Source of the DNA: Kiritimatiellia bacterium
Lineage (GTDB): Bacteria; Verrucomicrobiota; Kiritimatiellia; CAIKKV01; CAITUY01
Length of the DNA stretch: 64,000 nt
Direction: 5' to 3'
NCBI GenBank assembly: GCA_038330175.1
Contig: JBBQNS010000001.1
Location: forward strand, 15,552 to 79,551
Shown here: piece by piece, positions 126 through 34,580 of the stretch
Position numbering within the stretch: the stretch's first letter is position 1
Layout of the letters: every line of letters begins with the position of its first letter
Made by a program: the position numbers and the translations under genes
Notes under the pieces: generated by a model
Seen by the model: only the letters and a program-made list of their open reading frames with translations
Told to the model about the DNA's origin: nothing
Database searches by the model: none

Positions 126-386
126 AAGTAATAACCATCAGAATCGCTACCTATCCCGCTTGGGCGCATCTGCGATCATGAGTTCTATTTAGGGACGTCG
201 CTTGCTACGTGCCGCTGGTCTATATGATCGCCGGTATAAGTCCAACGGCACGCCGCAAGCGACATCCCTACATAATGAGCGTGCGCAAAAAAATATCATC
301 ATTTTGGCTTTACACCGTCCCATCAAATGACTAAGTTATATTTATTAATTCGTAATGATGTAGTCTTTTGATGGCCAGAAATTATT

Positions 387-5418: not shown

Positions 5419-6765
5419 ATGAAAAATAAATGTGATGTGTGTGTAGTGGGTGGTGGAAGCGGGGGATTTGGCGCAGCGTTGGCGGCTGCACGGCGCGGGC
5501 TGCGCGTGCTGTTGGTCGAGAAGGGCTCCATGCTAGGCGGAACCAGCACGCTGGGCGGAGTGAATACCTGGGAGCCCGGTGTCAGTAGTTCAGGCTTTCC
5601 CCTGGAGTTATATGAGCGCCTGCGTCGACAGCAGAACGCCATTGGCGTAAGCCGCACCATCCAAAATTGGCAGCCCGACAAACCGTGGGGCTGGTCGCGT
5701 GTTGATGCGTTAGCCGACTATCAGAGTTCAGAGAGGCGGGCGGGAACGCCGAGTGATCAATGGGCGCGGATCACTTTTGAGCCGGAGGCGATGGCGGCGG
5801 AAATGCTTGCCATGCTGCAGGAAACTGGGAACGTGGACGTACGGCTGAATACCCGGTTTGTCAGAGCGGAATGTCAGGGTGATCAAGTGAAGCGGCTATG
5901 GTTGTCCGATTCCTCAGGTGAATTTGAGATTGAACCTAGCTATGTCGTGGATAGCACGGCGGAACTGCTTGTGGCCTCCGCCGTGGGATGCCGGACAAGC
6001 ATAGGAACGGAGCCGAAGTCAATGTATGGCGAGGACTGTGCACCCATAGAGCCGTTGACGCAGATCAATGGGGTCACGCTATGTTTCCGCGTCACTCCGA
6101 GTGATGTTCCAAACGTTCAGCCGTTACCGCCCGAGCTGTCGGGCGGCACCTTTACGCCGCCAGTGAGTATCACGGAGTATCCCTGCGGGGACTTGAATAT
6201 GAATTCGCTGCCGACCCTAGATGGCTGGGAGTATCGGCAGCTGGGCGAAGTCGAAGGGCGGCGGATTTGTGAACAGCGGATCGCGTTATTATGGCATTGG
6301 TTACAGGCGGATAAGGGGTTCGACCGGTATCGCCTGGTCCGGCTATTCCCGATGGTTGGGGTGCGAGAAGGTGCTCGGTTGGTGGGGCGCCATGTGTTAA
6401 CCGAGCTGGAGGTGCGGGCAGGGTGTTCAGGACAACAGAACCGAGATCGATGGATCGCTTTGGCAGATCATGCGTTGGATGTCCATGGGCATGGCCACAT
6501 GTGTCGGGAGTTAAGCCAGCCCTATGGGGTCCCTTATGAGTGTTTATTGCCGCAGGAATTCGAGAACCTGATTGTTGCCTGTCGCGGAGCGTCCTTCTCG
6601 CACATTGCGGCTTCGTCCTGCCGGCTATCGCGCACGATGATGGCACTAGGTCATGCCACAGGATTGGCCGTTGCTGAGGCCGTAAAAAAGCGCACCGGGT
6701 TGTCCTCAATTGAGGTTGGACGTATCCAGCCGGAGTTGAACGTCCTGTGTGACGCTGCTGTTTAG
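5419..6765 (+). CDS. FAD-dependent oxidoreductase (FAD_oxidored/PF12831-like)
   Basis: Dinucleotide-binding motif CDVCVVGGGSGGFGAALAAARRG. An AGGAG RBS lies 6 nt upstream of the ATG at 5419. The ORF-track start at 5386 is probably an N-terminal over-extension. Confidence 0.8.
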   Translation: MKNKCDVCVVGGGSGGFGAALAAARRGLRVLLVEKGSMLGGTSTLGGVNTWEPGVSSSGFPLELYERLRRQQNAIGVSRTIQNWQPDKPWGWSRVDALADYQSSERRAGTPSDQWARITFEPEAMAAEMLAMLQETGNVDVRLNTRFVRAECQGDQVKRLWLSDSSGEFEIEPSYVVDSTAELLVASAVGCRTSIGTEPKSMYGEDCAPIEPLTQINGVTLCFRVTPSDVPNVQPLPPELSGGTFTPPVSITEYPCGDLNMNSLPTLDGWEYRQLGEVEGRRICEQRIALLWHWLQADKGFDRYRLVRLFPMVGVREGARLVGRHVLTELEVRAGCSGQQNRDRWIALADHALDVHGHGHMCRELSQPYGVPYECLLPQEFENLIVACRGASFSHIAASSCRLSRTMMALGHATGLAVAEAVKKRTGLSSIEVGRIQPELNVLCDAAV

Positions 6766-6781
6766 AGGCCACATTTTGTCG

Positions 6782-7060
6782 CTAGGCAAGCGGCAAGGGC
6801 GCCGCTTCTACGGTGGTGCCGTATGTCTGAAACAGAGCCAAGGCTTGGCTCACGTCCAGGCGGTCGGCCGCATCAGCGAAGGGATTTCTCAGGTAGGGCG
6901 AGGTGTCCCTACCGAGCCGGAGCAAGTTGTGGCCATGAAATGCGCCAAAATAGTCAAAGTCTTTTGCGGCGCTTCAGATGGATTGCCCTTTACACCACGG
7001 CTCATCGGGACGATTCGCCCTACCGAATCCTTTTCGAATGGGGGCGTAGATAAGAGCGAT
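6782..7060 (-). pseudogene. Decayed 3' fragment of an AbiEii/AbiGii-family nucleotidyltransferase toxin gene
   Basis: Minus-strand translation gives ...LRNPFADAADRLDVSQALAL..., homologous to the C-terminus (LRRQLADAVDRLDVRQAIADV...QALALW) of the intact AbiEii at 20343–21212. There is ~85 % nucleotide identity over the segment cagagccaaggcttg...cacgtccaggcggtcg[g/a]ccgcatcagcga. An in-frame stop lies upstream. Confidence 0.5.
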
Positions 7061-7099
7061 TAGGTGGCTGTCACCGCTGGGGACAGTGGCCACTACAAG

Positions 7100-7131
7100 C
7101 ATGATCAAGCTGTGTTTTAAAGCTTGATCAT
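7100..7131. repeat. AT-rich inverted repeat CATGATCAAGCT-N9-AGCTTGATCAT
   Basis: Perfect 11–12-bp inverted repeat. A related copy (CATGATCAA-N16-TTGATCATG) is at 16942–16975. Both lie in AT-rich non-coding DNA next to AbiE-type loci. Confidence 0.45.
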
Positions 7132-7245
7132 ACAATAAAATACCGACCGCGCATTGTCAGCACATTTCTTTTCTTACAGACCTCAGAGGTATGAGCCCGC
7201 CATTAGCGCAACATGGTTATGTAGCTGACTCAACCACCCGCTACG

Positions 7246-7452
7246 CTAGCAGCCTGTCGGGCTTCGCGCCTGTGGAGGGGCTACCGGCGGAGACCGCCGG
7301 CTCCAGAATATAATTTGCGTCAGCAAACAAGCGTCACGTGCTGCCCATTGCTGAATTCACCGAGGATAGCCCGTTCTTTTAATCTTTGGAGCCGGCGGTC
7401 ACCGCCGGTGGTGGCGGTTGAGTCCGAAGGCTGTGCAAGTCCGACAGGCTGC
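7246..7452. repeat. Complete ~205-bp MITE/REP-like element with ~60-bp imperfect terminal inverted repeats built around the core CTACCGGCGGAGACCGCCGGCTCC / GGAGCCGGCGGT(C/A)(T/C)CGCCGGT(A/G)G
   Basis: Left arm 7249–7306 and right arm 7387–7452 are reverse complements at both termini (GCAGCCTGTCGG...) and in the core. Related copies are at 56–125, 49831–50015 and 62976–63069. Confidence 0.7.
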
Positions 7453-7700
7453 CAGGCGTAGGGCGAACAGTTTGACCCTGTTTTTTTAAGCTCACGGAAC
7501 TGTACAGCGCGGGGCGTTTCGTCTATTTTTCAAGCATGTACATGAAGAACGAAGTGCGCAACCCAGTCTATATCAAGCTGGTAATAGCGATCGCCTTTAT
7601 CCAGCTACTCGCACTGGAGGCCATTTTACCTCCGGCCTTCGGACAAGAGCCTTCCGCCATTCTCGCCACTGTTAACACGCAAACGTAAAATACAGCTAAG

Positions 7701-11028: not shown

Positions 11029-12137
11029 ACCGCCCCCTTATCCGTCAGATCAATGCTTCGCCCCTTCCAGGACACATTCTTGCGCAACCCGGTCCTAACC
11101 AGCGAACGCATGAAAACCATGAGATAGAACAGCAGCGCTACGGGGTAACAGAGTGCCGTGATCCAGCGGAAGGATCCGATCCGAATCAGCATCATATAGA
11201 TCTGAACGGCATACAGCACATAAAGTATCAACCACACACCAAGGAGTTCACCCTTTACTGCGGCGATGGCGAGCAAAATGCCTGTGACCAGGCTCCCTGA
11301 TAACCACGCAATAATCGCCAAAAGCAACGTCAGAGGTGTCTGAGCCGCTCCTGTTGCAAATGCCTTAGCCCATCCCGCCTGCAACTCATGCACACCGTGA
11401 GGATACATTCGCATGGTCACAGTTCCCCTTCCCCCGCAGCAACGCATCGGTATGCCAGCCCGGCCAAAAAGCGGCGCCATGAAGAAGTTTTCAAGAATCT
11501 GGCCCCGCACCGCCGCATGCCCGCCAACCAACTCATAGGCCCGGCGGTCCACCATCAGAAAAGGCCCAAAAAGCCCTCCCGGGTTCAGTCTGCGGCCCGC
11601 TATCGTAAAGGCCCCCGTGCCTGCCGTCATGATAAGATTGAAGAAGGCTGACAACTCCTCATAATAACAGCGCACTTTATGATACGGCCCAATGGAAAGA
11701 ACGCCAGGACGGCGCGCATACGTATCCCGGATCGCGCGCAGGGCATGAGGTTCAAGGCGCGTATCGGCATCCATGAAGATCAGTACCGACCCGGAGGCCT
11801 CGTTGGCTCCTTGTTGGCAGGCCCACGTCTTGCCCCGCCACCCTGCGGGCAAAGGATGCGACGGCATCATACGCGCACCACCCGCAACCGCCACGGCGGC
11901 CGTCTGATCGCTCGACGAATCGTCAACCACAATGATCTCGTCTGGTGGCGGATCCTGTGAGGTCAGTGACTGGAGTAACCCCGGCAGATTTTCCTCTTCG
12001 TTCCGGGCGGGCACGATGACTGAAAGCGTGAAACCGGGTTCTGGCGCGGAACTGGGGCGGCATAAGGTAATGCGGCCTAGAAACACAAATCCCAGCGCCC
12101 ACAGCACGGTCACTGTCACCAGCAGCAAAACCGTCAT
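11025..12137 (-). CDS. Family-2 glycosyltransferase (CrtQ-like, 4,4'-diaponeurosporenoate glycosyltransferase-type)
   Basis: GT2 signature SVIVPARNEEENLPGLL...IIVVDDSSSD. The start at 12137 forms an ATGA overlap with the stop of the upstream desaturase gene. Confidence 0.7.
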   Translation of the reverse strand: MTVLLLVTVTVLWALGFVFLGRITLCRPSSAPEPGFTLSVIVPARNEEENLPGLLQSLTSQDPPPDEIIVVDDSSSDQTAAVAVAGGARMMPSHPLPAGWRGKTWACQQGANEASGSVLIFMDADTRLEPHALRAIRDTYARRPGVLSIGPYHKVRCYYEELSAFFNLIMTAGTGAFTIAGRRLNPGGLFGPFLMVDRRAYELVGGHAAVRGQILENFFMAPLFGRAGIPMRCCGGRGTVTMRMYPHGVHELQAGWAKAFATGAAQTPLTLLLAIIAWLSGSLVTGILLAIAAVKGELLGVWLILYVLYAVQIYMMLIRIGSFRWITALCYPVALLFYLMVFMRSLVRTGLRKNVSWKGRSIDLTDKGAV

Positions 12138-13618
12138 GGCCGATCCCATTCGATAATCTTGCGGCACACGTTCTGACCGCACAAAACGACCATGGGCATT
12201 CCGCCACCGGGGTTGACGGAACCTCCGACAAAGAAAAGGTTCGGGTAACGCGCATCTTGCTTAGGCGCCTTGAATCCAAAGTTTTTCCATTTGTCCGCCA
12301 CCACACCATAGATGGAGCCACAGTTCGAGTAGTACTGCTGCTGGATATCGCGGGGCGTCCAGACATGTTCAAACACGATGTGCTTGCGTAAGTCCGTAAG
12401 GCCCATGCGCTCGAGTTTGTCGATGACCCGCTCCTTGAAGGCCATGTAATCCGCATCCGTGAGCGGATGCGTCTCGTCCAGGCAGGGAATGTGGGGCAGG
12501 ATTTTCAGGCAATCACACCCGGGCGGCGCGACGGAGGGGTCTGTCTTCGACGCGGCCACCAGATAGATAGTGGGGTCGGCGGACAGCTCGCCCTTGTGGA
12601 ATACGGCATCGAAATGCTTCCGCGCATTAGCCGAATAGAAGAAGTTGTGGTGTGCCAGCTGCGGGTAGCTGATGTCCAGCCCCAGATCGAGAATCAGCCC
12701 GGAGCACGCCGGCTTGAAGCGCCGTAGTCGCCGCAGTGCGGCTTTATCCGGAGGAAGCAGTTGGCGGTGCGCCGGGATGAGCTCCATGTTCGAGACGACG
12801 ATATCCGCATCGGCCTGCCCACCATCGACCAGGGTGATCCCTGTGACGCGCTCACCCTGTGTTCGAATCCGGGCCACTTCGCGGTTCAGATGCACGACAA
12901 TTCCAAGTTCGTCCATCAACTTTTTTAATCCGTGGGCAATGTTGTATAGCCCGCCGTCCACGTACCAAAGATCATGACGAAACTGAATGGTCGGAAGGCA
13001 GTTCATGAACGCGGGCGCATCGTAAGCGGATGAGCCCACATACTTGATGAAGTAATCGAGCACATCGCGGACATGCGGCTCATCTATGAACCGAGCCACG
13101 CCCCCATGCATCGTGCGAAATAAATCAAACTTCAAAAAATCCATCAGGCCGTAATGGTGCTGAAAATCCTTAAGTGTGTCCAAACCGCGTTCAAAGTAGC
13201 CGGCGTTGACGGTATCGTAAAGTTTGCCTGCGTAATTCAGAAAAGCCTGGAACCGTTCAGGGTCCTGCCCGACCTTGCGCAATTCCGCCACCATCTGGTC
13301 CGTCTCCGGAACGAGGTCGAGCACCGTGCCGTCCTCAAAGAAATTTCGCCAATGCGGCCGCAGGGGCCGGATCGGGATGTAATCGGCCATGCGCTTTCCT
13401 GAGCGCTGAAAGAGCCGCTCGAAGAGATGGGGAAGCGTGAGGATCGAAGGGCCGAGATCAAACGAGTAACCTTGAGCCGTGAGGACATTCAGTTTCCCTC
13501 CGATCTGGGCGTTCTTTTCAAACACTTCGACCTGGTATCCCTCCTGCGCCAGCGAGATCGCCGCAGATAAGCCACCCAGCCCTGACCCGATCACAATCAC
13601 TTTTTTTGTTTCGCTCAT
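12134..13618 (-). CDS. Phytoene-desaturase-family enzyme (CrtN/CrtP/CrtI-like carotenoid desaturase or oxygenase)
   Basis: N-terminal FAD fold KKVIVIGSGLGGLSAAISLAQEGYQVEVFEKNAQIGGK. About 500 aa with a C-terminal NPGGGMP motif. The start at 13618 is MSETKK. Confidence 0.8.
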   Translation of the reverse strand: MSETKKVIVIGSGLGGLSAAISLAQEGYQVEVFEKNAQIGGKLNVLTAQGYSFDLGPSILTLPHLFERLFQRSGKRMADYIPIRPLRPHWRNFFEDGTVLDLVPETDQMVAELRKVGQDPERFQAFLNYAGKLYDTVNAGYFERGLDTLKDFQHHYGLMDFLKFDLFRTMHGGVARFIDEPHVRDVLDYFIKYVGSSAYDAPAFMNCLPTIQFRHDLWYVDGGLYNIAHGLKKLMDELGIVVHLNREVARIRTQGERVTGITLVDGGQADADIVVSNMELIPAHRQLLPPDKAALRRLRRFKPACSGLILDLGLDISYPQLAHHNFFYSANARKHFDAVFHKGELSADPTIYLVAASKTDPSVAPPGCDCLKILPHIPCLDETHPLTDADYMAFKERVIDKLERMGLTDLRKHIVFEHVWTPRDIQQQYYSNCGSIYGVVADKWKNFGFKAPKQDARYPNLFFVGGSVNPGGGMPMVVLCGQNVCRKIIEWDRP

Positions 13619-13890
13619 AGGCCTTCCTTTCTTTCCACGCCTCTTGTAAAACGCTACGGACGACACGGAGGTCGTCCCTCCATCTTGCAAGCCAGGCCGT
13701 TTCCATCATCTTCTGGAGGGTCGTGCTCCGTCACGACCGTCTTCTCTGGAGGTTTTGCAAGAGCCTCCCCCGTATCGTCCGCGTTACCTGTGAAACACAG
13801 TAACCGAGACATGGTCAGACATAGACGCTATTTCATGATCCCTTATACATTAACCTTGACTAGAAACCATGTTTTTTTTCTACTTACGGC

Positions 13891-15273
13891 ATGGGAGTAA
13901 ATTACAGCTTGGAAAACGTGCGTAGTTTATGGGAGACAGGCATAACCTTGCCCCTCTCTTTCCGGCGTGAACAGCTCCTGACGCTGCAACATGCCATCGA
14001 AGTTAACGAAGGCGTCATCCTCGATGCCTTGCGGGCCGATCTTGGTAAGCCGCCTTGCGAAGCCTATGCCTCGGAACTGGGCTTTGTGCTGGCCGATATC
14101 CAGTACGCGTTGAAACATCTTGCCGCCTGGGCGCGCCCCCAACGACACCATACACCGCTCGGGTTGCAGCCCGCGCGAAGCTCGGTACATCCCCAACCCT
14201 ACGGTATCGTTTTGATTATCGGACCTTGGAACTACCCCTTTGCCCTGACCCTCTCCCCGCTGGTATCCGCCCTGGCGGCCGGAAATGGTGTCTGCATGAA
14301 ACCCTCCGAGTTCGCCCCGCAGGTGTCGGCGGTGCTGGCACGTCTTGCCCGTGAGTATTTCCGACCAGACATCCTGACCGTCATCGAAGGCGATGCCACG
14401 GTTGCCGGAACCCTTGCCCGCCTGCCATTTGACAAGATATTCTTCACCGGCAGTACGGCGGTGGGCCGCCGCGTGCTGGAGGCGGCAGCAGCGAATCTCA
14501 TACCCGTTACCCTTGAACTGGGCGGCAAATCACCTTGTATCGTTTGTGACGATGCCGACCTGCGGGTCGCCGCACGCCGCATTGCCTGGGGCAAGTTTCT
14601 CAACGCGGGGCAAACCTGTGTCGCGCCCGATCATGTGTGGGTCCAAGCCTCCTGCCTGCGCCCGCTGGTGGAGCACCTTACGGCTACGATCCAGACATTC
14701 TATGGCCCCAACCCGCAACAGAGCCCCGACTACAGTCGCATTATCAACCTCCATCACCTGCAGCGGCTGACCGCCTATCTCGGGCAAGGACACCTCGAGT
14801 GCGGAGGGCAGCATGATCTGAATGATCGATACCTCGCTCCAACCATTATGACTGGTGTTCCGCTTGCGGCCTCCATCATGCAGGAGGAAATTTTTGGTCC
14901 CATCCTGCCGGTTCTGCCGTTCAACACGCTGGATGAGGTCATCAAGCAGGTCCGGACGCAGCCGCGGCCGCTGGCCCTTTACGCATTCACCGAAAACCGC
15001 GCAACACAAACGCGCCTTCTGGCGGAGACCTCTTCCGGTGGCGTCTGTTTCAACGACACCGTGAGCCACATTCTGGCACGCGATCTCCCGTTTGGTGGTA
15101 TCGGCGCCAGCGGCATGGGCGCCTATCACGGAAAGGCGGGATTCGATGCGTTCACACATTACCGAAGCGTCATGACGCGCTCCTTGCATTGGGATCCAGG
15201 ATTCAAGTATCCTCCGGTTACAACTTCGCTTGTCGCCATGAAACGTATCTATCGATTCCTATTAGGGAGTTAA
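13891..15273 (+). CDS. Aldehyde dehydrogenase family protein (candidate diapolycopene-dialdehyde / carotenoid aldehyde dehydrogenase)
   Basis: ALDH motifs ELGGKSP and FTGSTAVGRRV, plus the catalytic-Cys region GQTCVAPD. A 460-aa ORF. Confidence 0.85.
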   Translation: MGVNYSLENVRSLWETGITLPLSFRREQLLTLQHAIEVNEGVILDALRADLGKPPCEAYASELGFVLADIQYALKHLAAWARPQRHHTPLGLQPARSSVHPQPYGIVLIIGPWNYPFALTLSPLVSALAAGNGVCMKPSEFAPQVSAVLARLAREYFRPDILTVIEGDATVAGTLARLPFDKIFFTGSTAVGRRVLEAAAANLIPVTLELGGKSPCIVCDDADLRVAARRIAWGKFLNAGQTCVAPDHVWVQASCLRPLVEHLTATIQTFYGPNPQQSPDYSRIINLHHLQRLTAYLGQGHLECGGQHDLNDRYLAPTIMTGVPLAASIMQEEIFGPILPVLPFNTLDEVIKQVRTQPRPLALYAFTENRATQTRLLAETSSGGVCFNDTVSHILARDLPFGGIGASGMGAYHGKAGFDAFTHYRSVMTRSLHWDPGFKYPPVTTSLVAMKRIYRFLLGS

Positions 15274-15282
15274 GGAGCCACT

Positions 15283-16794
15283 ATGCCCAAAACAAAACAT
15301 ATCGTCATTGTTGGTGCCGGTCCGGGCGGTTTGACTTCCGCCATGATCCTGGCCCACCGCGGATTCAAGGTCACGCTTTTTGAAAAGCAACCCCAGGTCG
15401 GTGGTCGGAATGCAGCCCTGCGAGCGGGTCCCTTTGTGTTTGACGTTGGTCCGACTTTCCTGATGTTGAAAAGTGTGCTGGACGAGGTTTTCCACGAGGC
15501 TGGCGCAACCACCGATGCTTTGATGGATATGCGCCGGATCGAACCCATGTACCGGCTACAGTTCGCTGACAAATGGATCGAGCCCTCCACCGACCGGGCG
15601 CGCATGAAAGCCGAAATTGCGCGCGTGTTCCCCGGTCGCGAGGATTCTTATGACGCATTCATGGCGAGAGAGCAAGCGCGGTTCCGCCACCTCTTCCCGT
15701 GCCTGCAGAAATCCTATCACCGGTTTTCCTCCCTGTTCTCACCCGACCTGCTCAAAGCCCTGCCCCATATGGCCCTGGGCCGTACTCTTTTCTCGGAGGT
15801 CTTTCGTATCTTCAAACAAGAAGACCTGGCGCTATCCTTCACCTTCCAATCCAAGTACCTCGGCATGTCACCATGGGAATGCCCGGGACTGTTCTCGATG
15901 ATCCCCTACATCGAGCACGCCTACGGCATCTATCATCCCATCGGCGGCTTGAGCCGTATTTCCGAATGTATGGCGGAGGTCGCGCAGCGCAATGGCGCCA
16001 CGATTCGTCTCGGCACACCTGTTGAACAAATCATTGTGCGCAACGGCGTGGCGACAGGAGTGCGCCTGACGGGCGGCGAGGTTGTGGACGCCGACGAAGT
16101 GGTGATCAATGCCGACTTTGGACATGCCGCCACGGAGCTTTTCGCCCCGGGCGCACTTAAAAAGTACACTCCTAAAAAATTAGCAGGAATGAAGCTTTCC
16201 TGTTCTACCTTTATGATGTACCTGGGGCTCGATACGATTCTTGACCTGCCGCACCACTCGATCATTTTTGCGCGCGACTATCGGACCAACATCGAGCGCA
16301 TTTTCAAAGGGCAGGAACTGTCCGGCGATCTCTCGTTCTATATACGCAATGCCAGTATCACGGATCCGACGCTTGCGCCGGCAGGCCAGTCGGCACTTTA
16401 TATCCTCGTTCCCGTCCCGAATCTTCGAAGCGGACTGGACTGGGAGCAGCGTCGCGCGGCCTACCGGGAAATGACTCTGGACGCCGTGACGGCGCGCACG
16501 GGAGTGAATCTGCGCAACCACATCATATCAGAAAATATCGTCACGCCGGCCGACTGGAAAGAAACCTATCAGGTGTATGAAGGCGCCACCTTCAACCTGG
16601 CGCATAACATGGCCCAGATGGTTTACCTGCGGCCACGCAACAAATTTGAGGACGTCGACAACTGCTATCTGGTCGGCGGCGGCACTCACCCCGGCAGTGG
16701 GTTGCCCACAATCTACGAATCAGGGCGGATCTCCGCTAACCTCATCTGCCGCCGCCATAATATTCCGTTTGTTTCAGGTAACCTTGAGGTTTGA
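15283..16794 (+). CDS. Phytoene-desaturase-family enzyme (CrtI/CrtN-like carotenoid desaturase)
   Basis: KHIVIVGAGPGGLTSAMILAHRGFKVTLFEKQPQVGGR FAD-binding N-terminus. A 503-aa ORF with a C-terminal GGGTHPGSG motif. Confidence 0.85.
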   Translation: MPKTKHIVIVGAGPGGLTSAMILAHRGFKVTLFEKQPQVGGRNAALRAGPFVFDVGPTFLMLKSVLDEVFHEAGATTDALMDMRRIEPMYRLQFADKWIEPSTDRARMKAEIARVFPGREDSYDAFMAREQARFRHLFPCLQKSYHRFSSLFSPDLLKALPHMALGRTLFSEVFRIFKQEDLALSFTFQSKYLGMSPWECPGLFSMIPYIEHAYGIYHPIGGLSRISECMAEVAQRNGATIRLGTPVEQIIVRNGVATGVRLTGGEVVDADEVVINADFGHAATELFAPGALKKYTPKKLAGMKLSCSTFMMYLGLDTILDLPHHSIIFARDYRTNIERIFKGQELSGDLSFYIRNASITDPTLAPAGQSALYILVPVPNLRSGLDWEQRRAAYREMTLDAVTARTGVNLRNHIISENIVTPADWKETYQVYEGATFNLAHNMAQMVYLRPRNKFEDVDNCYLVGGGTHPGSGLPTIYESGRISANLICRRHNIPFVSGNLEV

Positions 16795-16941
16795 GGTAAA
16801 TCCTTGATTTTAGGGAGGCTCTCGCCAATCTCAAAATTGCAGGAGGTATATTGCTTCTATCCACATTCTTCAGCGGCGCGATATCGCTGACGCCGAGACG
16901 TCAATCACCTTCGCGACGTCTATAGGCGTGACAGATTAAGA

Positions 16942-16975
16942 CATGATCAAACTTTATAACAAGGCTTGATCATGT
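16942..16975. repeat. AT-rich inverted repeat CATGATCAA-N16-TTGATCATG, related to the one at 7100
   Basis: Lies in the ~370-bp AT-rich spacer that precedes the low-GC island starting at 17172. Confidence 0.4.
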
Positions 16976-17171
16976 TTTCGATATTTTGAATTTCCACTAA
17001 ATTTTATTGCCCCTGATCGACTCTCAACGTGATTAATCGTCGGTTTAAAAATAAAACAGTGCCGGATTTATCTCCTTGATACTATCGGTGCGCAATGATA
17101 TATAAATGCTCATAAATATATTATATCAGTGAACACTAATTATTCGGTTCGAAGTAAAAAGACGCGTTAAA

Positions 17172-18344
17172 ATGAATAGGCAACAATACTTATTTCAGAA
17201 AATGAACCTATGGTTGGAGGCTAAGGGTTACAAACCCGTCTTCTCGCTTTCCAACAAGGATGCTGAACTTGATAGAGATTCTATCTTCAGGAAAGAGGGT
17301 GCGGCTCCTCTTGCTGTCGAGATGCGGGTGCTGAATGCCTACAGGTCTCAGGAATTCAGAGCGTTGATCGGTGATGCGATACTGCGCAACCGATATGGCG
17401 AATCGGAACGGCAAGTTGAAAAGGAATTCTTCCTTGCCATCATGCTTAAACGCATAAGCCCGATGATCGTGAAGGATCTTCAGGATTATGCTCAAAGGTA
17501 TCTGCCATCTTTGAACTGGCTGGCAGTGGATGAAGTGGGCCAAGGACAGGCCTGGTTCAGTGGTGTACAGGAATCGATCTCATTGTCGGATGCCTTCCGA
17601 CAAGAGGTTGATGGAAAGGTTCAGAGCTCACCGGGAAATATCTTTTCCCAAAAGAACCAGTGGTTGTTCAAAATCCTTCTGTTGGCGGGCATTGATAAAC
17701 AGTACTGGGGAGGGCCCTCACGTGTTCCAGGCAGCATCAGCGAACTGGCTCAAATATCGGGCGTTCCCCAGCCCTCAGTCTCATCTTTTGTAATGAAAGC
17801 CGAAAGCGCGGGATTCCTGAAACGATCCCGAGGTGGATTTCACATCATTCGATATCATGAATTGCTGGATGAATGGTTCTACTCCGTCAAACAACGGCGG
17901 CGCTATGAAGTCGGAGCACGCTTTCTCTATGGTGAGGAACCCGATGAACGTTTTGTCGACAAGATGAGGGAGTACTGCCACAAGGCAAAGTCAGGAGTGG
18001 ATGGTCCGGTACTCATTGCCGGTCATCACCTTGCCTGCCATCTTCTGAAACTGGGCCGTTCCAATGTTCAGTTTGCCAAGATTTATGCAAATCGTCCGGT
18101 AGAGGAAATGATGTCGGAACTCGACCTGGCACGAGATGAATCCTCCGATCCTCAACTGGTCCTGGCGGTTCCGCCAATCGCGCAACCGGTCTTTGCGGGC
18201 CACGTTGTTTGCGATGGAATTCCCGTAAGCGATGTACTTCAATGCTATTTAGACGTGAGATCGTCGCTTGCGCGCGGCAATGAGCAGGCAGAATTCATTC
18301 TGGAAAAAATACTCATGCCCCATTTCGAAAGGAAGCCTCTATAA
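17172..18344 (+). CDS. Hypothetical 390-aa protein with a central winged-helix-like segment. Candidate AbiEi-like antitoxin/regulator partner of the downstream nucleotidyltransferase.
   Basis: Markedly AT-rich codon usage compared with its surroundings. A putative wHTH (ISELAQISGVPQPSVSSFVMKAESAGFLKRSRGG) is present. The stop overlaps the next start (TAATG). Confidence 0.4.
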   Translation: MNRQQYLFQKMNLWLEAKGYKPVFSLSNKDAELDRDSIFRKEGAAPLAVEMRVLNAYRSQEFRALIGDAILRNRYGESERQVEKEFFLAIMLKRISPMIVKDLQDYAQRYLPSLNWLAVDEVGQGQAWFSGVQESISLSDAFRQEVDGKVQSSPGNIFSQKNQWLFKILLLAGIDKQYWGGPSRVPGSISELAQISGVPQPSVSSFVMKAESAGFLKRSRGGFHIIRYHELLDEWFYSVKQRRRYEVGARFLYGEEPDERFVDKMREYCHKAKSGVDGPVLIAGHHLACHLLKLGRSNVQFAKIYANRPVEEMMSELDLARDESSDPQLVLAVPPIAQPVFAGHVVCDGIPVSDVLQCYLDVRSSLARGNEQAEFILEKILMPHFERKPL

Positions 18345-19213
18345 TGATAGGAAAAAGATTTGATCCTTTCTTTGCTCAGATTGTACAGACTCTGGGGCCC
18401 TATTTGGATGATGTTTTGTGTATCGGCGGGTGCGCCAACGCTCTTTACCGGTTCCACGATCTCGCGAGTCCTATGCCCTGGGGGTACCTTGGGACCAAGG
18501 ACGTGGATCTCGCCACACCTCAGCACCTGTTCGTGAAGGACGGAAAGTCACTGGCTGTTCTCATGGCGGAAGCCGGGCTTGAGGAGGAACAGAAGGGACA
18601 CGGCCACCAAGCTGTGATTAAATATAAGGCAAAGGATGGCGATCTGGCTGCGGAACTGGAGTTTCTGTGCCCATTGTCAGGAGCCAAGGGCCAACGAGAA
18701 GGATCAGAGTCACCCACTGTCTGTGTGGTTCAGGAAGGGTTGCATGCCCAGCCACTGCGTTACCTTGAAATTCTCTTCAGTCATCCCTGGTCGGTGAGTA
18801 TCGGGAAGATTCCTGAATTCAGGGAACTCGGCGGGTTGCAAGTTCATGTGCCGAATCCGGCGGCCTATGTTGTGCAGAAAATCCTGATTCGTGATCAAAG
18901 GCGGTCTGATCTATCGAAGGCGAAAGACTGTTACTACATCTATGAGATTTCGGTTATCTTCAGGGACGCCTTGGATCAGATCTCATCTGAGTTTGAAGGG
19001 CTGTTCCCATGTCTTCCCGCGTGGAAAAAACGGTTTCAGAAAGAGGCGAGCCACCTGTTTGAATCACAAAATTCAGAAGGGCCCGCTTTGGCTGTACGCA
19101 CATATCATGATGCAGGACGTCCAAGAACGGGAACTAAGATGCCTCCGACACCCGAGATGGTCTATCGCTCGGTCAAAAAACTACTTACGGCAATGAATAC
19201 CAGCCTTCTGTGA
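18344..19213 (+). CDS. Divergent AbiEii/DUF1814-like nucleotidyltransferase (candidate toxin or effector)
   Basis: NTase-fold motif hGG...Y...(D/E)hD (LCIGGCANALYRF...GTKDVDLATP). C-terminal KILIRDQRRSDLSKAKDCYYIY parallels the K..R..K.RDWYDL of the canonical AbiEii at 20343. Translationally coupled to the upstream gene. Confidence 0.5.
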   Translation: MIGKRFDPFFAQIVQTLGPYLDDVLCIGGCANALYRFHDLASPMPWGYLGTKDVDLATPQHLFVKDGKSLAVLMAEAGLEEEQKGHGHQAVIKYKAKDGDLAAELEFLCPLSGAKGQREGSESPTVCVVQEGLHAQPLRYLEILFSHPWSVSIGKIPEFRELGGLQVHVPNPAAYVVQKILIRDQRRSDLSKAKDCYYIYEISVIFRDALDQISSEFEGLFPCLPAWKKRFQKEASHLFESQNSEGPALAVRTYHDAGRPRTGTKMPPTPEMVYRSVKKLLTAMNTSLL

Positions 19214-19287
19214 TCATGACCTTAACGTTTAACGTTTCGTCACCTGATCCTTATATAAATCTGCTATTAACTTGTCCCTGATGAGCC

Positions 19288-20112
19288 TTAGCCTTCTAAT
19301 AGTTGTGTAAGCGCTTGGGGTGCAAGTTGTCGGCCATATTCCGACAGTTCGAACGATTCCACGTAATGGAATGAGTCGGCCTCGACGCCATACTGGGCGT
19401 GAAGTTGGGTCCGGTATAAATCGGCCTGAAGACGGTTGGAGGCTAACCATCGTTTTTCCAAAAAAGCCAATCGTTCAATCCGGGTCATGCGGCTCAGGTT
19501 AAAATCTTTGTTCCCGTCAAGCCAGGGTAGCCATTCGTAAAATTGCGACACGTGGCAGTCGAGCATCGCCAGTTTGGAGCTGACGGCATTGTCAATGGCG
19601 ATGCAGGCATCCGGACGGAACGGGGTGGGCTGTTGAAATCCATCCCAGCTCACGCAAAACACCGGCCACTCCAGGGGAATCGGAATTTCAGGGCAATACA
19701 GCGGCACCCGGATCAAAAAAGAGGCATCCTGTACCAGTTGGGCCGTTGCCCGATGATCAGCGTGGTAATCACATTGGCGATGTGAGATGACGATGTCCGG
19801 GGCGAATTCACGGATGATTTTTACGATTTGTGCCCGGTTCCCCAGTGACGGCACCAGTTGACCGTCGTGGTGATCCAATACTTGGTATTCTGCCAATCCC
19901 GCGATATGGGCGGAGGCCTGGGCTTCTGCATAACGCCGTTTGATCAGTTCAGTGGGGGACATGGCGTAATGTCCGGCATCTCCGTTGGTGGTAGACACGA
20001 ATTTCACTTTGTGGCCCAGTTTGGACAACTTGATGGCACATCCGCCGAACATCCCGTCCGGGTCATCGGGATGGGCTCCGATAATAAGAAATTTTTTGCA
20101 GGTCAACTTCAT
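19288..20112 (-). CDS. PIG-L/LmbE-family N-acetylglucosaminyl deacetylase
   Basis: LIIGAHPDDPD ... HADHRAT zinc-binding motifs. The ATG at 20112 is preferred over the TTG-extended ORF start. Confidence 0.8.
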   Translation of the reverse strand: MKLTCKKFLIIGAHPDDPDGMFGGCAIKLSKLGHKVKFVSTTNGDAGHYAMSPTELIKRRYAEAQASAHIAGLAEYQVLDHHDGQLVPSLGNRAQIVKIIREFAPDIVISHRQCDYHADHRATAQLVQDASFLIRVPLYCPEIPIPLEWPVFCVSWDGFQQPTPFRPDACIAIDNAVSSKLAMLDCHVSQFYEWLPWLDGNKDFNLSRMTRIERLAFLEKRWLASNRLQADLYRTQLHAQYGVEADSFHYVESFELSEYGRQLAPQALTQLLEG

Positions 20113-20342
20113 GGTTTTGTTAAAGAATATTGAATCCCTAGGGTTTTGCAACGTTTGATCAATCAGCCTAATTCATCCTGCCTACCTTCCGCCCCGGTTC
20201 CACTAGCGGCAGCCCCGTATTCGCTCGAGGCATAGAGTCACGAGTGAGTGAGTAGAGAGATCGAAAGATTTTCACGGCGCGATACGATGCGACCCTTCGC
20301 GGTTACGTAAGGGCCAGATGCAAGCCTTATTGCCGCAGACCG

Positions 20343-21212
20343 TCAAACCAACACGATTCGGCGCATGACTTCCGTGAAAAAGTCCTTTGACCACAGAGCC
20401 AAGGCTTGCCGATCCCGCACGAAAGGCTCGACGTCAGCAATGGCCTGCCTCACGTCCAGGCGGTCGACCGCATCAGCGAGTTGGCGCCGTAATTCGTCCG
20501 GCGCCAGTGCATGGGCTGCAGTGTAGTCTCCAGATTGGCGCATGCGAAATTCCAGATGCCGGACGTGCAGCTCCGGGTGTCGCCCCGCATACCAAACCAG
20601 ATCGTACCAGTCCCTTCCCTTTACCCGGTTCTTCCATTTCCGACACAGCACGGCATGGATTTTGCCAGCAAAGAGGTCGGGCAAAGAATAGGTGCGTACG
20701 GCAAAGGGGACAGGCTGGAGAACATACTTCGTTTCAGTGGTAAATCCGGGCGGGGGCTTTGTATCCACTTCCAGTTTGATCGTGAGTTGACGTCCTAAGG
20801 GAAGCGTTGCAACCATTTCAGGAGCCGCCTCCAGCACAATCATTTGTTGCACGGTGTCCGTCTTGAGAAATGCCGACTCAATCGCCGAGGCCTTCCGCAC
20901 GTTCGGTTTCTGATCAAACCGCACTGAAAACCCGAAACTACGGAGTTCATTCTGCAGCGCATCTCCGTAGCGGGCCAGTGTGAAATGGGCATCCGGCTTG
21001 AGGAGCGAGAAGTCCAGATCCTCCGAATAGCGGTCAAGCCCGTGAAGGATCCTCAGAGCGGTTCCTCCATAGAAAGCGGCATGCTCAAAAAACTTGCTTC
21101 GCCACAACCCCAGCAGCGCCAGTTCCTGAAGAATCTCGCGAAGGGCATTCAAGTAATCGTCACGGGTCTTGCAGTCGTACCGAGCCAACATCTGCCTAAC
21201 AGCCTCATTCAT
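20343..21212 (-). CDS. abiEii: AbiEii/AbiGii-family nucleotidyltransferase toxin (type IV TA / abortive-infection)
   Basis: Canonical FYGGTALRILHGLDRYSEDLDFSL motif. A 289-aa ORF. Overlaps the upstream abiEi stop by 4 nt. Confidence 0.85.
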   Translation of the reverse strand: MNEAVRQMLARYDCKTRDDYLNALREILQELALLGLWRSKFFEHAAFYGGTALRILHGLDRYSEDLDFSLLKPDAHFTLARYGDALQNELRSFGFSVRFDQKPNVRKASAIESAFLKTDTVQQMIVLEAAPEMVATLPLGRQLTIKLEVDTKPPPGFTTETKYVLQPVPFAVRTYSLPDLFAGKIHAVLCRKWKNRVKGRDWYDLVWYAGRHPELHVRHLEFRMRQSGDYTAAHALAPDELRRQLADAVDRLDVRQAIADVEPFVRDRQALALWSKDFFTEVMRRIVLV

Positions 21213-21859
21213 CGGTGTTTCCTCCGTGTGCGTTGGACGGCTTCAACCAATCCCGCGATCCGGGAGTCGTTATACCCTCCGGCAATTTCCTGCACCGCCT
21301 TCAGATCCAGTTGGGCAAGTCGTTCCCGGTCAATACGCAAATCGTCAAACAAGTAGACGGCATAATCGATGGACGCCGAGGGTTTAAACCGTCGATCCAA
21401 CCAAACGATATCAGCCAATGCCTTTTCAGGTGATGCGATTAGAAAATAATCAGCGCCGCTCTTCGCCTGCGTTAGTCCCATGGCGTAAGGCATCATGGGA
21501 ATCCGGCGATAAGTGAACAAACCGAACGGCGTCTGAAACCGGCGAGTCTTGCCACTGGTGACGCTCGTGACTACGTTTACCCGCTCGGGAATCATCCCAT
21601 GATGACTGAGGGCATACTGTAAACTGATATAGGAAGGCCCGCAAATGAGGTTAGCAAGAAGTTCCCTGCAAACCGGTTGCCGCCGCCACGCCTCTCCGAA
21701 AACATACAACCCCTTCTTGACACGCACAACGGCCCCTGTGGCCATCAAAGAACTGATCTTGTCACGTGGCTTGGAGTACTCCCGCAGAACATCCATCAGC
21801 TGCTGGTAGTCGATGACTTCCCAGTCAATGCTTCGTCTTAGTTCTTCCATTACATTCAC
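21209..21859 (-). CDS. abiEi: AbiEi-family antitoxin / transcriptional regulator
   Basis: 216 aa. Typical AbiEi N-terminal wHTH plus C-terminal domain (GLYVFG...ALSHHGMIPE). Immediately upstream of abiEii with a 4-nt overlap. Confidence 0.8.
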   Translation of the reverse strand: MNVMEELRRSIDWEVIDYQQLMDVLREYSKPRDKISSLMATGAVVRVKKGLYVFGEAWRRQPVCRELLANLICGPSYISLQYALSHHGMIPERVNVVTSVTSGKTRRFQTPFGLFTYRRIPMMPYAMGLTQAKSGADYFLIASPEKALADIVWLDRRFKPSASIDYAVYLFDDLRIDRERLAQLDLKAVQEIAGGYNDSRIAGLVEAVQRTRRKHR

Positions 21860-21884
21860 AGTTCAGAGTAAACCATATTTAATT

Positions 21885-21915
21885 CCAGTATGTCCAGTAT
21901 TATTGGACATACTGG
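21885..21915. promoter_or_regulatory. Perfect 12-bp inverted repeat CCAGTATGTCCA-N7-TGGACATACTGG, about 25–55 bp upstream of the abiEi start. Candidate AbiEi autoregulatory operator.
   Basis: The exact palindrome is seen in the sequence. AbiEi antitoxins are known to autorepress through inverted repeats in their own promoter. Confidence 0.5.
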
Positions 21916-21991
21916 ATTTCAAAGACGTCGCTGCCGCTTTGAAAAAACACGATACCCCACCCTGATGCGCATACGCGGGCGGGGTTCCTGC

Positions 21992-22828
21992 CTACCGCTG
22001 GAATTCGCGGGGATCTAGGGGCTGGATCGCAAAGTCCGGCTTCCAATGGGGAGATTGGCCATAAAAGGCCATGGCATTATCGAAGGTGAGACGGCTTATG
22101 TCGGATTCAGGGAACCCGTCTAAACGCAGTTGATTCACCACCTTCACCAGACTCAACGGATCGGATACGCCCCAATCGGCAGAGCCATCAACAATCATAC
22201 GCTCACTGCCATATTCCCGGATAATGGCGGTTACCCGCTCCGGATTAAGCTTGGAAATCGGGTAAACGGTCATCCCGCAATAGCAACCGCTTTCCCGTGA
22301 AAGCCGGATCGTATCCTCGGTATTATGATCGATCTCAACCAAGTCCGGATTGATGCCCTCGGCCTTTATAATTTCAAGAGTCCGCTTGGTCCCTCGCAGT
22401 TTATCCAGATGCGGAAGATGCACGATCACGGGCATGTGATGTTCATGGGCGATATGCAACTGGCGGACAAAGGCAATTTCCTCATTTACCGTAATAGCAT
22501 TAAACCCTATCTCTCCGATAGCCACACAGCGGGGATGGGTAAGGTACGGAGTCAGGCCATCCATAACCTCTTTTGCCAAAACCACATCTTCGGCTTCCTT
22601 GGGGTTGAGTGATATGGCGACGTAATGATCAATGCCAAATCGCCGGGCCCGGACCGTTTCAAACTCGAGTATCAGATCGAAATAATCAAAAAAGGTTCCG
22701 GCATATCGACGATTGCGCCCCATCCAAAAAGAAGGCTCCACGCAAGCTCTGATGCCAGCCTGAAACATGGCAACATAGTCGTCCGTGGTTCGCGAGTACA
22801 TGTGAATATGGGGTTCAATAATGCTCAT
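21992..22828 (-). CDS. TatD-related metal-dependent hydrolase (TIM-barrel amidohydrolase-like). Possibly an EboB-type hydrolase.
   Basis: N-terminus MSIIEPHIHMYSRTTDDY (PHxH metal ligands). A 278-aa ORF. Confidence 0.55.
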   Translation of the reverse strand: MSIIEPHIHMYSRTTDDYVAMFQAGIRACVEPSFWMGRNRRYAGTFFDYFDLILEFETVRARRFGIDHYVAISLNPKEAEDVVLAKEVMDGLTPYLTHPRCVAIGEIGFNAITVNEEIAFVRQLHIAHEHHMPVIVHLPHLDKLRGTKRTLEIIKAEGINPDLVEIDHNTEDTIRLSRESGCYCGMTVYPISKLNPERVTAIIREYGSERMIVDGSADWGVSDPLSLVKVVNQLRLDGFPESDISRLTFDNAMAFYGQSPHWKPDFAIQPLDPREFQR

Positions 22829-22837
22829 AACTACCGC

Positions 22838-23878
22838 CTATCTCGTAAAATTAATTCGTGGATCGATCAGAGTATAGCAAAAATCAGAAACAATGTTACC
22901 AAGCAGTCCCAGAATGGAGGTGAGCGCCAAGATTCCCATAAAAACAGGATAATCGCGTCCCACGATCGCGTCCAAACTCAGTCGACCCATCCCGGGAATT
23001 TCAAAAATCTGCTCAATAATCACGGAGCCGGCAAACATCACGCCCAGAATGCCGCCAATCCCTGTGGCGATGGGAATCAGGGCATTGCGCAAGGCGTGCC
23101 CCCAGACCGCACGCTGGGCAGAGCCGCCCTTAGCCAATACCGTCCGTAGGTAGTCTTTTCCTACTTGGTCCAGCAACGAATTTTTCATCAACAAGGTCAA
23201 AACCGCAAAGCCCCCAATGACATAGCAGAGAACCGGCAGCACCATATGCCAGAGTGCATCCGCCATCTGTCCGAGCCAGGAATAGGATTCAAAGGACTCA
23301 GAATGAACGCCCGAGAGCGGGAAGATATCCCAGAGATTATCTGCCGTGCCACACAACATCATCTTAAGCAACATCCCTAAGGCCACGACTGGAATCGCAT
23401 AGCCGCTTAACACAATGACGCTTGAGGCCATATCAAAAGCGCTACCGTTCTTCAGCGCCTTGGAAATTCCCAACGGAATACAGATCAAATAGCTCAATAC
23501 GACCCCGGTAAGACCGAACACAAGGGATACTGGAACCCGCTCGCGGATCAGTTGCCAAGCGGTTTTATTGGGATATTTGAAGGATTCCTGACGCATCCCC
23601 AGCCGGTCGTGTGCCAGCCATTTCCAGTACTGAGTCAGAAAGGGTTTATCGAAGCCAAAATGCTTCTCCAGCGCCTTGCGTTGCTCCGCCGTGATCGTTC
23701 CAGACGCCCCGGCGGCCATCTTCCCTTCCCCGGAGGAAATCCCCTTCATCTGCATGATGATCTGCTCGACAGGCCCGCCAGGGATAACTTGGACGAGCCC
23801 ATAGCATAAGAGGGTGATCCCTAAAAATGTAGGGATCACCATTAACAACCGCCTGATAAAGTAGCTAGCTCGCTCCAT
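22838..23878 (-). CDS. ABC transporter permease, OppB/YejB (peptide/microcin-C-type) family. An orphan with no ATPase or binding protein nearby.
   Basis: MERASYFIRRLLMVIPTFLGITLLCYGLVQ N-terminus and a ...DPRINFTR C-terminus. The true start at 23878 is internal to the longer ORF-track call. Confidence 0.75.
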   Translation of the reverse strand: MERASYFIRRLLMVIPTFLGITLLCYGLVQVIPGGPVEQIIMQMKGISSGEGKMAAGASGTITAEQRKALEKHFGFDKPFLTQYWKWLAHDRLGMRQESFKYPNKTAWQLIRERVPVSLVFGLTGVVLSYLICIPLGISKALKNGSAFDMASSVIVLSGYAIPVVALGMLLKMMLCGTADNLWDIFPLSGVHSESFESYSWLGQMADALWHMVLPVLCYVIGGFAVLTLLMKNSLLDQVGKDYLRTVLAKGGSAQRAVWGHALRNALIPIATGIGGILGVMFAGSVIIEQIFEIPGMGRLSLDAIVGRDYPVFMGILALTSILGLLGNIVSDFCYTLIDPRINFTR

Positions 23879-34384: not shown

Positions 34385-34580
34385 TCCATGAAGGTAACAT
34401 GAAGCCTATTAAGGCGAACAGTGGAATTTACAGGGCATTGGGGGGGGGCGAGACTTGGAGGAATGCCTCCAAGTCGTGAATCGCTTCAGAATTGTTTCCA
34501 TTGACCATATTATGGCGGTGGCCAAAGGGACGGTGGCCGATTCGTTCCATGAAAAAAACATCAACGGGGCTTGAGAAAGC

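Follow-up and report, generated by a model that had tools for sequence, protein, structure and literature searches.

What do two nucleotidyltransferase (NTase) gene pairs mean when they stand within about 5 kb of each other in a bacterial genome, and do they form one defence island with the deacetylase gene lying between them, or separate units? The question is raised by positions 17172-21859 of a 64,000-nucleotide stretch of contig JBBQNS010000001.1 from a Kiritimatiellia bacterium, the whole of which is called the window here. An earlier note on this DNA had seen in the segment a compact defence island composed of a divergent AbiE-like pair, a PIG-L deacetylase gene and canonical AbiEi/AbiEii genes. 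Two bicistronic NTase modules with the PIG-L gene between them are confirmed by the gene map and by family matches, one being the abiEi/abiEii pair and the other consisting of two genes designated orfA and orfB (together orfAB). We consider it probable that these are two independent, self-contained and autoregulated NTase cassettes of the toxin-antitoxin (TA) or abortive-infection kind, one a canonical AbiE system and the other a distant system of the same design, and that the PIG-L gene is unrelated to both.

The AbiE pair and the palindrome upstream of abiEi

The abiEi/abiEii genes (20343-21859, minus strand) are a canonical AbiE pair and an ordinary member of a known system, as the earlier note had it. 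The abiEii product matches PF08843 with 123.7 bits (cut-off 22.5) and the PADLOC AbiEii model with 8e-108, the abiEi product matches PADLOC AbiEi with 9.5e-63, and the two genes overlap by 4 nt. The abiEi protein of the window has no Pfam match of its own, and against the NCBIfam TAA_AbiEi equivalog it scores 47.5 bits, under the 150-bit cut-off; its homologues (2358 matches) contain PF13338 and are listed by JGI as ‘predicted transcriptional regulator of viral defense system’. The closest named relatives, of AbiEi as well as of orfB, come from Kiritimatiellia and Lentisphaerae metagenome-assembled genomes (MAGs). By homology, abiEi would encode a winged helix-turn-helix (wHTH) antitoxin and autorepressor of the COG5340/AbiEi_4 type, and abiEii a DUF1814 NTase toxin. 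The GTG start of abiEi at 21859 is supported because one homologous locus, L089, has ATG at the aligned codon. At the DNA level, homology of the cassette extends from the outer edge of the palindrome described below to the abiEii stop codon (~21918 to 20345) with 70-73% identity. The AbiEii partners in loci L089, L103 and L105 are 78-84% identical in amino acid sequence and their AbiEi proteins only 61-70%, so that conservation is higher in the toxin than in the antitoxin.

The active-site motifs of AbiEii, namely G49 G50, S63-E-D65-L-D67, K184, R191 and R200-D201-x-x-D204, are conserved across eight homologues, with D65 present in 7/8. S63 is located two residues ahead of the first catalytic Asp, a position equivalent to that of T39, the phospho-acceptor of MenT1, which is found with D41 (PMC11375011), and T65 of the S. 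agalactiae AbiEii has been discussed as the equivalent phospho-acceptor residue (bioRxiv 10.64898/2026.01.19.700257). MenT toxins act on tRNA by modifying its acceptor stem, and their antitoxins silence them by inducing auto-phosphorylation of the toxin (PMC11375011); the same tRNA modification and silencing by auto-phosphorylation have been reported for the S. agalactiae AbiEii (bioRxiv 10.64898/2026.01.19.700257). By homology with these toxins, AbiEii would nucleotidylate the acceptor ends of tRNA and thereby arrest translation, and the C-terminal domain of AbiEi would neutralise it, which in the studied systems occurs through toxin binding and induced auto-phosphorylation, with S63 as the likely residue here. 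In its overlapping bicistronic operon with the antitoxin gene first, the pair resembles the AbiE systems of L. lactis and S. agalactiae (COG5340-COG2253/DUF1814) as well as MenA3/MenT3 and MenA4/MenT4 of M. tuberculosis; it further shares with AbiE a PF08843 toxin with motifs I-IV, an antitoxin made of a wHTH and a C-terminal domain, and an inverted repeat just upstream.

This repeat, reported in the earlier note as a perfect 12-bp inverted repeat (CCAGTATGTCCA-N7-TGGACATACTGG), is present exactly at 21885-21915. It extends to 13-bp arms, TCCAGTATGTCCA-N7-TGGACATACTGGA, at 21884-21916, with its proximal edge 24 nt upstream of the abiEi GTG, and no perfect inverted repeat with a loop of 3-12 nt is longer anywhere in the window; first-order Markov simulations give an expectation per 64 kb of 0.54 such repeats with arms of at least 10 bp and 0.03 with arms of at least 12 bp. 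When abiEi homologues and their upstream DNA were gathered from metagenomes and MAGs (the window arms being given in gene orientation), the same palindrome was found 21-33 nt upstream of the homologues on unrelated contigs, the flanks outside it being unrelated between loci. Three loci have perfect arms with differing spacers: L103 (AbiEi identity 64%) and L104 (70%) carry the same left arm TCCAGTATGTCCA and right arm TGGACATACTGGA as the window, around the spacers TTTTTTC and ATAATGC, respectively, where the window has ATAATAC, and L105 (61%) carries TTCCAGTATGTCCA and TGGACATACTGGAA around TTATTAC. In L089 (68%), in which CCGGTATGTCCA and TGGACATACCGG surround ATAATAA, a compensatory double change, A>G in one arm and T>C in the other, maintains the palindrome. 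Moreover, the half-site core persists in degenerate forms of the palindrome at 41-47% AbiEi identity, in L091 as CCAGTATGT...ACATACTGG, in L090 as TATGTCGAA-N5-TTCGACATA and in L044 as GTAAGTCGA-N7-TCGACATAC.

In comparisons of this kind, a protein-binding site for a dimer or two monomers is recognised by arms whose sequence is kept while the spacer between them is free to vary. Because the arms are conserved while spacers and flanks vary, and because of the compensatory change, the palindrome at 21884-21916 is a strong phylogenetic footprint of a putative AbiEi operator, and the role of candidate operator that the earlier note had assigned to it is strengthened by the same features. The S. 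agalactiae AbiEi represses its own promoter by way of a pair of inverted repeats (23-3-23), and antitoxicity requires no more of it than the C-terminal domain (PMC3985639); binding of AbiEi homologues to inverted repeats in promoters is also on record (PMC3985639, PMC7319586). Compared with the 23-3-23 arrangement of S. agalactiae (PMC3985639), the candidate operator here is 13-N7-13 and has a sequence of its own, and AbiEi would repress the operon with one molecule on each 13-bp arm.

It might be argued that the palindrome is instead an RNA or a recombination or boundary element, such as a hairpin in the 5' untranslated region, a terminator or a site at the end of the cassette. Folded as RNA it would be a highly stable hairpin (-21.8 kcal/mol, z = -7.3), the DNA homology of the cassette starts exactly at its outer edge, and L089 shows the compensatory double change. 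However, the arms are conserved in sequence and not just in pairing over five loci, while loop and flanks vary freely, and half-site cores remain, with altered spacing, at 41-47% protein identity. The palindrome lacks a U-run, and a terminator-like hairpin lies 25 nt further out (21941-21993). An Rfam scan of 16600-22200 gave no family above threshold, its single result being a miRNA hairpin below threshold, an artefact located on the palindrome, and the promoter binding recorded for AbiEi homologues (PMC3985639, PMC7319586) speaks for a protein site as well. The RNA-hairpin reading fits the conservation pattern less well than the protein-site reading does, and we regard an RNA or boundary element as very unlikely.

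The orfAB cassette

The second module is likewise a pair of overlapping genes, in which the ATG of orfB lies over the stop codon of orfA (ATGA). orfB has PF12281 (NTP_transf_8) as its sole Pfam match, with 52.1 bits against a cut-off of 26.3, and PF12281 is found in 155/155 of the retrieved orfB homologues, to which NCBI gives the family name ‘GSU2403 family nucleotidyltransferase fold protein’. Residues G28 G29, T51-x-D53-x-D55, K179, K194-D195 and Y198 are invariant in 38 diverse members, and E106 is kept in 37/38. The resulting layout, GG...T-x-D-x-D / acidic / K...R / (K/R)D, is that of AbiEii and MenT toxins, including a Thr at the phospho-acceptor position, and makes orfB a candidate NTase toxin. 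Full-text literature searches on PF12281, NTP_transf_8, DUF3620 and GSU2403 gave no functional study, and a profile hidden Markov model (HMM) search of PDB sequences with the orfB family gave nothing meaningful, no solved structure being detectable.

In the AlphaFold2 model of orfA (mean predicted local distance difference test score, pLDDT, 85), three domains are distinguished. The N-terminal one has a restriction-endonuclease-like fold, of the PD-(D/E)xK kind, by fold search of the model; the middle one is a MarR-type winged helix, with a Pfam MarR match in 38/42 family members; and the C-terminal one matches NTase-fold proteins and AbiEi and MenT structures and is folded like the corresponding domain of AbiEi. 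The last of these is regarded as a pseudo-enzyme because R296-S297-N298 stand where an active NTase has DxD. The orfA family comprises 71 word-indexed matches, and an exhaustive profile search over clusters at 50% identity returned 314 cluster representatives at E <= 1e-30, a number that rises to 679 at E <= 1e-10. A search of PDB sequences with the family profile HMM returned generic wHTH regulators only. Its domain make-up and its place ahead of orfB make orfA a candidate antitoxin and autorepressor.

The pairing of the two genes is strict. In every context examined, an orfA homologue of ~380-396 aa precedes the NTase gene with an overlap of 1-10 nt; the contexts are L001-L006 (88% and 44% identity), L101 and L102 (34-41%), a JGI contig on which the pair lies beside an integrase, and conjugative plasmids of Paraburkholderia and Burkholderia. 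The pair is kept from 88% down to ~27% identity, in Verrucomicrobiota, on other metagenome or MAG contigs (one of them a Planctomycetota MAG) and on the Burkholderia and Paraburkholderia plasmids. On the latter, L107 (Paraburkholderia pSYMBR3459) and L108 (B. gladioli p1), the cassettes adjoin IS110, IS481 and integrase genes. The orfA-type partner is annotated as ‘hypothetical’ on the Paraburkholderia plasmid and as an ‘RpiR family’ transcriptional regulator on the Burkholderia gladioli plasmid, and the Paraburkholderia partner matches the orfA profile with 99.2% (E 1.8e-19). The neighbours of the pair include integrases, insertion sequence (IS) elements and PIN/MazE, MqsA-like and AbiEi_2 genes. 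In addition, the limits of the unit are sharp: window positions 17063-19213 are 87.7% identical to L001 over 2151 bp, a match that begins 109 bp upstream of orfA and ends at the orfB stop codon. GC content at third codon positions (GC3) is 0.52-0.54 in orfA and orfB, the lowest in the neighbourhood, against 0.62-0.67 in the flanking genes. As judged from its recurrence and boundaries, orfAB is a conserved mobile cassette. No relatives were found when viral contigs were scanned with the orfB profile.

The DNA ahead of orfA holds candidate regulatory repeats. In the window, a degenerate inverted repeat, TGATATA (17096-17102)-N19-TATATCA (17122-17128), overlaps a sigma-70-like match; at the equivalent place of L001, 40 nt before the start codon, there is an inverted repeat with perfect 12-bp arms, CATTGATATATT-N10-AATATATCAATG, and in L004 and L101 the corresponding DNA holds repeats of its own, direct or inverted. 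These repeats are consistent with autoregulation by the wHTH domain, in which they would serve as operators.

A putative link from orfA to the AbiEi_2 family (PF09952) is given by profile comparison. When the orfA profile was aligned by hhalign with a single PF09952 protein, L101:8803-9870 (PF09952 2.7e-12), the match reached 85.7% (E 5.5e-6) over 327 columns and spanned all three domains, that is, the N-terminal domain with a VE.K-like motif, the wHTH and the C-terminal domain. In direct searches, orfA itself had no match to PF09952 at E <= 1; in 6/42 family members the C-terminal domain, and no other part, gives sub-threshold matches (E >= 0.013; 13-15 bits, with the cut-off at 21), and for ten more distant orfA relatives, taken from the search of cluster representatives, there was no match to PF09952 at E <= 0.01. 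Dy et al. 2014 (PMC3985639) had noted, on bioinformatic grounds, pairs of COG4861 (PF09952 AbiEi_2) with COG4849 as a second family of the AbiE-like type. Like these, orfAB has a regulator of ~350-390 aa ahead of an NTase and occurs in TA-rich neighbourhoods; unlike them, its partner NTase is PF12281 and not DUF1814/COG4849. From these alignments orfAB looks like a further branch of the COG4861-COG4849 design with a different NTase family. No experimental study of orfAB or of COG4861-COG4849 pairs was found in the literature searched. In L101 (3820-9873), an orfAB-type cassette stands 3 kb from a bona fide PF09952 gene, which is itself followed by small unannotated open reading frames, in a TA-rich region that also holds an MqsA-like antitoxin gene.

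Several results weigh against the interpretation of the segment as two autoregulated cassettes of one design. orfA has no match in Pfam, NCBIfam or PADLOC, and orfB has none among PADLOC (AbiEii included) or NCBIfam models. By hhalign, the orfA family does not match the window's own AbiEi family significantly (0.7%), and the orfB family does not match AbiEii significantly either, with a single sequence or with an 8-sequence profile. The PF09952 link comes from one template sequence (85.7%) and sub-threshold HMM matches. The candidate operator of the window's own orfA is a degenerate 7-bp inverted repeat, and a sigma-70 consensus scan gave no convincing promoter at the abiE palindrome. Finally, no empty site was found among relatives at 78-80% CrtI identity. 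Since the orfA profile and AbiEi do not match significantly, a direct AbiEi_4 relationship is not claimed, and membership of orfB in DUF1814 (COG2253/COG4849) was rejected, PF12281 being its only family and its alignment with AbiEii not significant. The ‘divergent AbiE-like pair’ of the earlier note therefore holds at the level of fold and remote homology, through the PF09952 alignment and the AbiEii/MenT-type motifs of orfB, and does not hold at the level of family models, where PADLOC gives no AbiE match.

If the two genes work as their likeness to AbiE suggests, orfB would be an NTase toxin with an intact GG / T51-x-D53-x-D55 / K179 / K194-D195 active site, and orfA its translationally coupled antitoxin and autorepressor. 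The MarR-type wHTH of orfA is predicted to bind the repeats in its own promoter (17063-17171), and its DxD-less NTase-fold C-terminal domain is predicted to contact orfB and silence it, either by a steric block or by induced auto-phosphorylation of T51, both of which are compatible with the sequences. The PD-(D/E)xK-like domain is probably a non-catalytic module for DNA binding or oligomerisation. For both cassettes, what is observed is the anatomy of the genes, their families and folds, the conserved motifs, the pairing, the cassette limits and the conservation of the palindrome, whereas toxicity, its neutralisation, the target, DNA binding and an effect on phages are inferred by analogy.

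The roles of the two proteins could also be reversed, with orfA as a wHTH-guided PD-(D/E)xK nuclease toxin and orfB as an NTase antitoxin that modifies it, as in the HEPN-MNT (type VII) systems. That an NTase can serve as an antitoxin is well established from HEPN-MNT systems, whose NTase AMPylates the toxin, and orfAB shares with these systems a two-gene organisation including a minimal NTase and possible control by covalent modification. The N-terminal domain of orfA, moreover, matches HamA, NucS, Hjc and CdiA-CT DNases, and its putative catalytic residues are largely conserved in the family (D36 in 32/42 and E50 in 39/42, with Lys in 28/42 and Arg in 12/42 at position 52, 40/42 in sum). A complete catalytic D...(D/E)-x-K triad was nevertheless rejected for orfA: the window protein reads D36...E50-M-R52, with Arg at the position of the catalytic Lys, as do its closest relatives, and the Paraburkholderia homologue has the Glu replaced, so that catalysis is no constant of the family; both changes argue against an essential nuclease activity. 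The DNA-binding protein, on the other hand, comes from the upstream gene, like the AbiE and MenAT antitoxins, and no part of the toxin-type active site is missing from orfB, the Thr whose counterpart in MenT1 undergoes auto-phosphorylation (PMC11375011) being present as well. Unlike in HEPN-MNT, the NTase gene is downstream, its active site is AbiEii/MenT-like and its partner binds DNA. Pfam scans of orfA and its family gave no HEPN domain, and fold searches gave nuclease, wHTH and NTase matches only; a type VII assignment was rejected for want of a HEPN partner. A reversal of roles is accordingly judged quite improbable, and orfA is read here as the antitoxin and orfB as the toxin. A more far-reaching proposal, which we put forward tentatively and hold to be doubtful, is that orfAB is a distinct, functional and widespread TA or anti-phage family in which the nuclease-like domain of the antitoxin senses phage or damaged DNA and so frees the NTase toxin.

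The segment, its neighbours and the question of an island

The five genes (Table 1) lie between crtI (15283-16794, plus strand), whose product matches TIGR02734 of NCBIfam with 444 bits, and a gene for a TatD-like hydrolase (21992-22828, minus strand). The spacer between crtI and orfA (16795-17171) measures 377 bp with 38.7% GC, against 54% for the window, which bears out the AT-rich spacer of 370 bp in the earlier note.

Table 1. Features of the segment and of related DNA in the window (positions in the window, or residues where stated)
Feature	Position	Strand	Length	Remarks
orfA	17172-18344	plus	390 aa	
orfA N-terminal domain	residues ~1-140			PD-(D/E)xK-like fold
orfA middle domain	residues ~160-235			MarR-type winged helix
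orfA C-terminal domain	residues ~240-390			NTase-like fold
orfB	18344-19213	plus	289 aa	
PIG-L deacetylase gene	19288-20151	minus	287 aa	
abiEii	20343-21212	minus	289 aa	
abiEi	21209-21859	minus	216 aa	
orfAB promoter and candidate operator region	17063-17171	plus		sigma-70-like -35/-10 match at 17095-17124
Hairpin with U-rich tail	16941-16975	plus		ACATGATCAA-N15-TTGATCATGT, perfect 10-bp arms; probable intrinsic terminator of the crtI operon
GC-rich hairpin with U-run	21941-21993	minus		stem CCCCGCCC...GGGUGGGG, then GUGUUUUUUC; right-hand limit of the abiE cassette
Remnant resembling the abiEii 3' end	6832-6892	minus		blastn 39/44 and 16/16

Both hairpins of the table are stable when folded as RNA. 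The one at 16941-16975 (-16.8 kcal/mol, z = -3.0), followed by UUUUCGAUAUUUU, belongs to the distal AT-rich spacer outside the orfAB cassette, the stretch being absent from the homologous cassette in L001. The hairpin at 21941-21993 (-28.4 kcal/mol, z = -2.1) probably serves as intrinsic terminator for the operon of ABC-permease and TatD-like genes that lies upstream. The two cassettes thus occupy a terminator-to-terminator gap, with U-tailed hairpins at its ends.

The PIG-L gene encodes an LmbE-family N-acetylglucosaminyl deacetylase (PF02585, 92 bits). Its identification as the bacillithiol deacetylase BshB1 was rejected at 92.1 bits against an equivalog cut-off of 182.5, and so was its assignment to either module, as it is absent beside all homologous cassettes. 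Its inclusion in a defence island by the earlier note is not borne out: the gene is linked to neither module in any relative, no evidence for a defence gene was obtained, and it is treated as an unrelated bystander. A distant second PIG-L paralogue is located at ~44877-45341, with 26% identity to the gene at 19288-20151 (tblastn 3.8e-6).

The reading of the segment as an acquired island was set against related contigs. Relatives obtained in a contig scan with crtI as query are Verrucomicrobiota MAGs, none closer than 78-80% amino acid identity. L008 shares the desaturase-aldh-crtI block and nothing downstream of crtI, L007 shares crtI alone, and the two have no common genes downstream of crtI; the left junction of the segment, right after crtI, coincides with the synteny break against L008. 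As described for orfAB and abiE in turn, both cassettes recur in unrelated contexts and their DNA homology stops sharply at the cassette edges. Exact-protein look-ups returned the same arrangement only, on one 11-kb contig. The hotspot of gene turnover proposed in the earlier note is plausible in view of two mobile cassettes, a nearby remnant and atypical GC3; no empty site was found among these relatives.

The opposite view would hold that there is no acquired island, that the five genes were vertically inherited and that orfAB consists of a transcription factor and an enzyme with a housekeeping or regulatory function rather than one in TA or defence. It can draw on the lack of any tRNA, integrase or transposase gene in or adjoining the segment, on the GC3 of the abiE genes (0.59-0.63, near that of the flanks), on the identical arrangement in the only other contig with identical proteins, and on the missing orfB-profile relatives on viral contigs; besides, even the two nearest relatives have little gene order in common around crtI, which makes the synteny break weak evidence. 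Against it stand the recurrence of both cassettes, sharply bounded in their homology, among unrelated neighbours and in unrelated phyla, in some cases on conjugative plasmids near IS elements, integrases and TA genes, the GC3 of orfAB, distinctly under that of its neighbours, and the abiEii-like remnant 10 kb away. Vertical inheritance of a housekeeping set appears unlikely, and the reading as two mobile TA-type cassettes is retained.

That remnant had been described in the earlier note as a third decayed AbiEii copy at 6782-7060. Similarity of ~60 bp of DNA to the 3' end of abiEii was confirmed (blastn, 6836-6879 against 20436-20479, 39/44, and 6832-6847 against 20393-20408, 16/16; tblastn, 13/19 aa, E = 0.025), and the full extent has no support from models: the three minus-strand translations of 6760-7700 gave no PADLOC match, and a 117-aa frame-1 piece over the remnant gave no Pfam match. 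About 210 bp from the remnant, at 7101-7131, there is a perfect inverted repeat with 11-bp arms, ATGATCAAGCT-N9-AGCTTGATCAT, whose core, CATGATCAAG, is also present in the 16941-16975 hairpin; for TTGATCATG the window has 5 occurrences, where 0.94 would be expected. The common core could be a site of a shared regulator or due to chance. Four more perfect short-loop inverted repeats with 10-11-bp arms are found at 23813-23840, 34452-34475, 39700-39733 and 44017-44042, with 0.54 expected per 64 kb.

On the left, the segment is preceded by a carotenoid-type cluster (12134-16794), in which genes of CrtI-family desaturases at 12134-13690 (minus strand) and 15283-16794 (plus strand) surround an aldehyde dehydrogenase gene at 13891-15273. 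The desaturase-aldh-crtI block is kept in the Verrucomicrobiota MAG L008 and resembles C30 apocarotenoid pathways.

Relation to known systems and biological meaning

Like the AbiE pair, orfAB shows the gene order, the overlap and the logic of AbiE and MenAT systems, a DNA-binding protein whose C-terminal domain has a degenerate NTase fold preceding an NTase with an intact active site. It differs from AbiE in that both proteins fall outside the AbiE Pfam and PADLOC models, and in that orfA, which exceeds AbiEi by ~175 aa, has a PD-(D/E)xK-like domain added at its N terminus. Within the PF12281/GSU2403 family, of which orfB is a clear member, function and partner have gone undescribed, and an obligatory orfA-type partner is seen here. 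orfAB is an unannotated family of candidate antitoxins joined to an unstudied PF12281 NTase in an AbiE-like architecture, missed by current defence annotation.

Through this finding PF12281, an NTase family whose only name comes from genome annotation, gains an obligatory partner and a connection with the design of AbiE/MenAT systems, in pairs that range from Verrucomicrobiota to Burkholderia and Paraburkholderia plasmids and that are missed by PADLOC and NCBIfam. For the canonical pair, the consensus TCCAGTATGTCCA-N7-TGGACATACTGGA offers a ready-made, testable DNA site for a clade of COG5340 antitoxins that is common in environmental bacteria. If orfB is toxic, it would extend the set of NTase toxins that target tRNA or otherwise nucleotidylate, and the pseudo-NTase domain of the antitoxin would represent an ancient and recurrent solution to the control of such toxins; a DNA-sensing trigger in orfA, if true, would be a sensing route not described for AbiE and MenAT systems.

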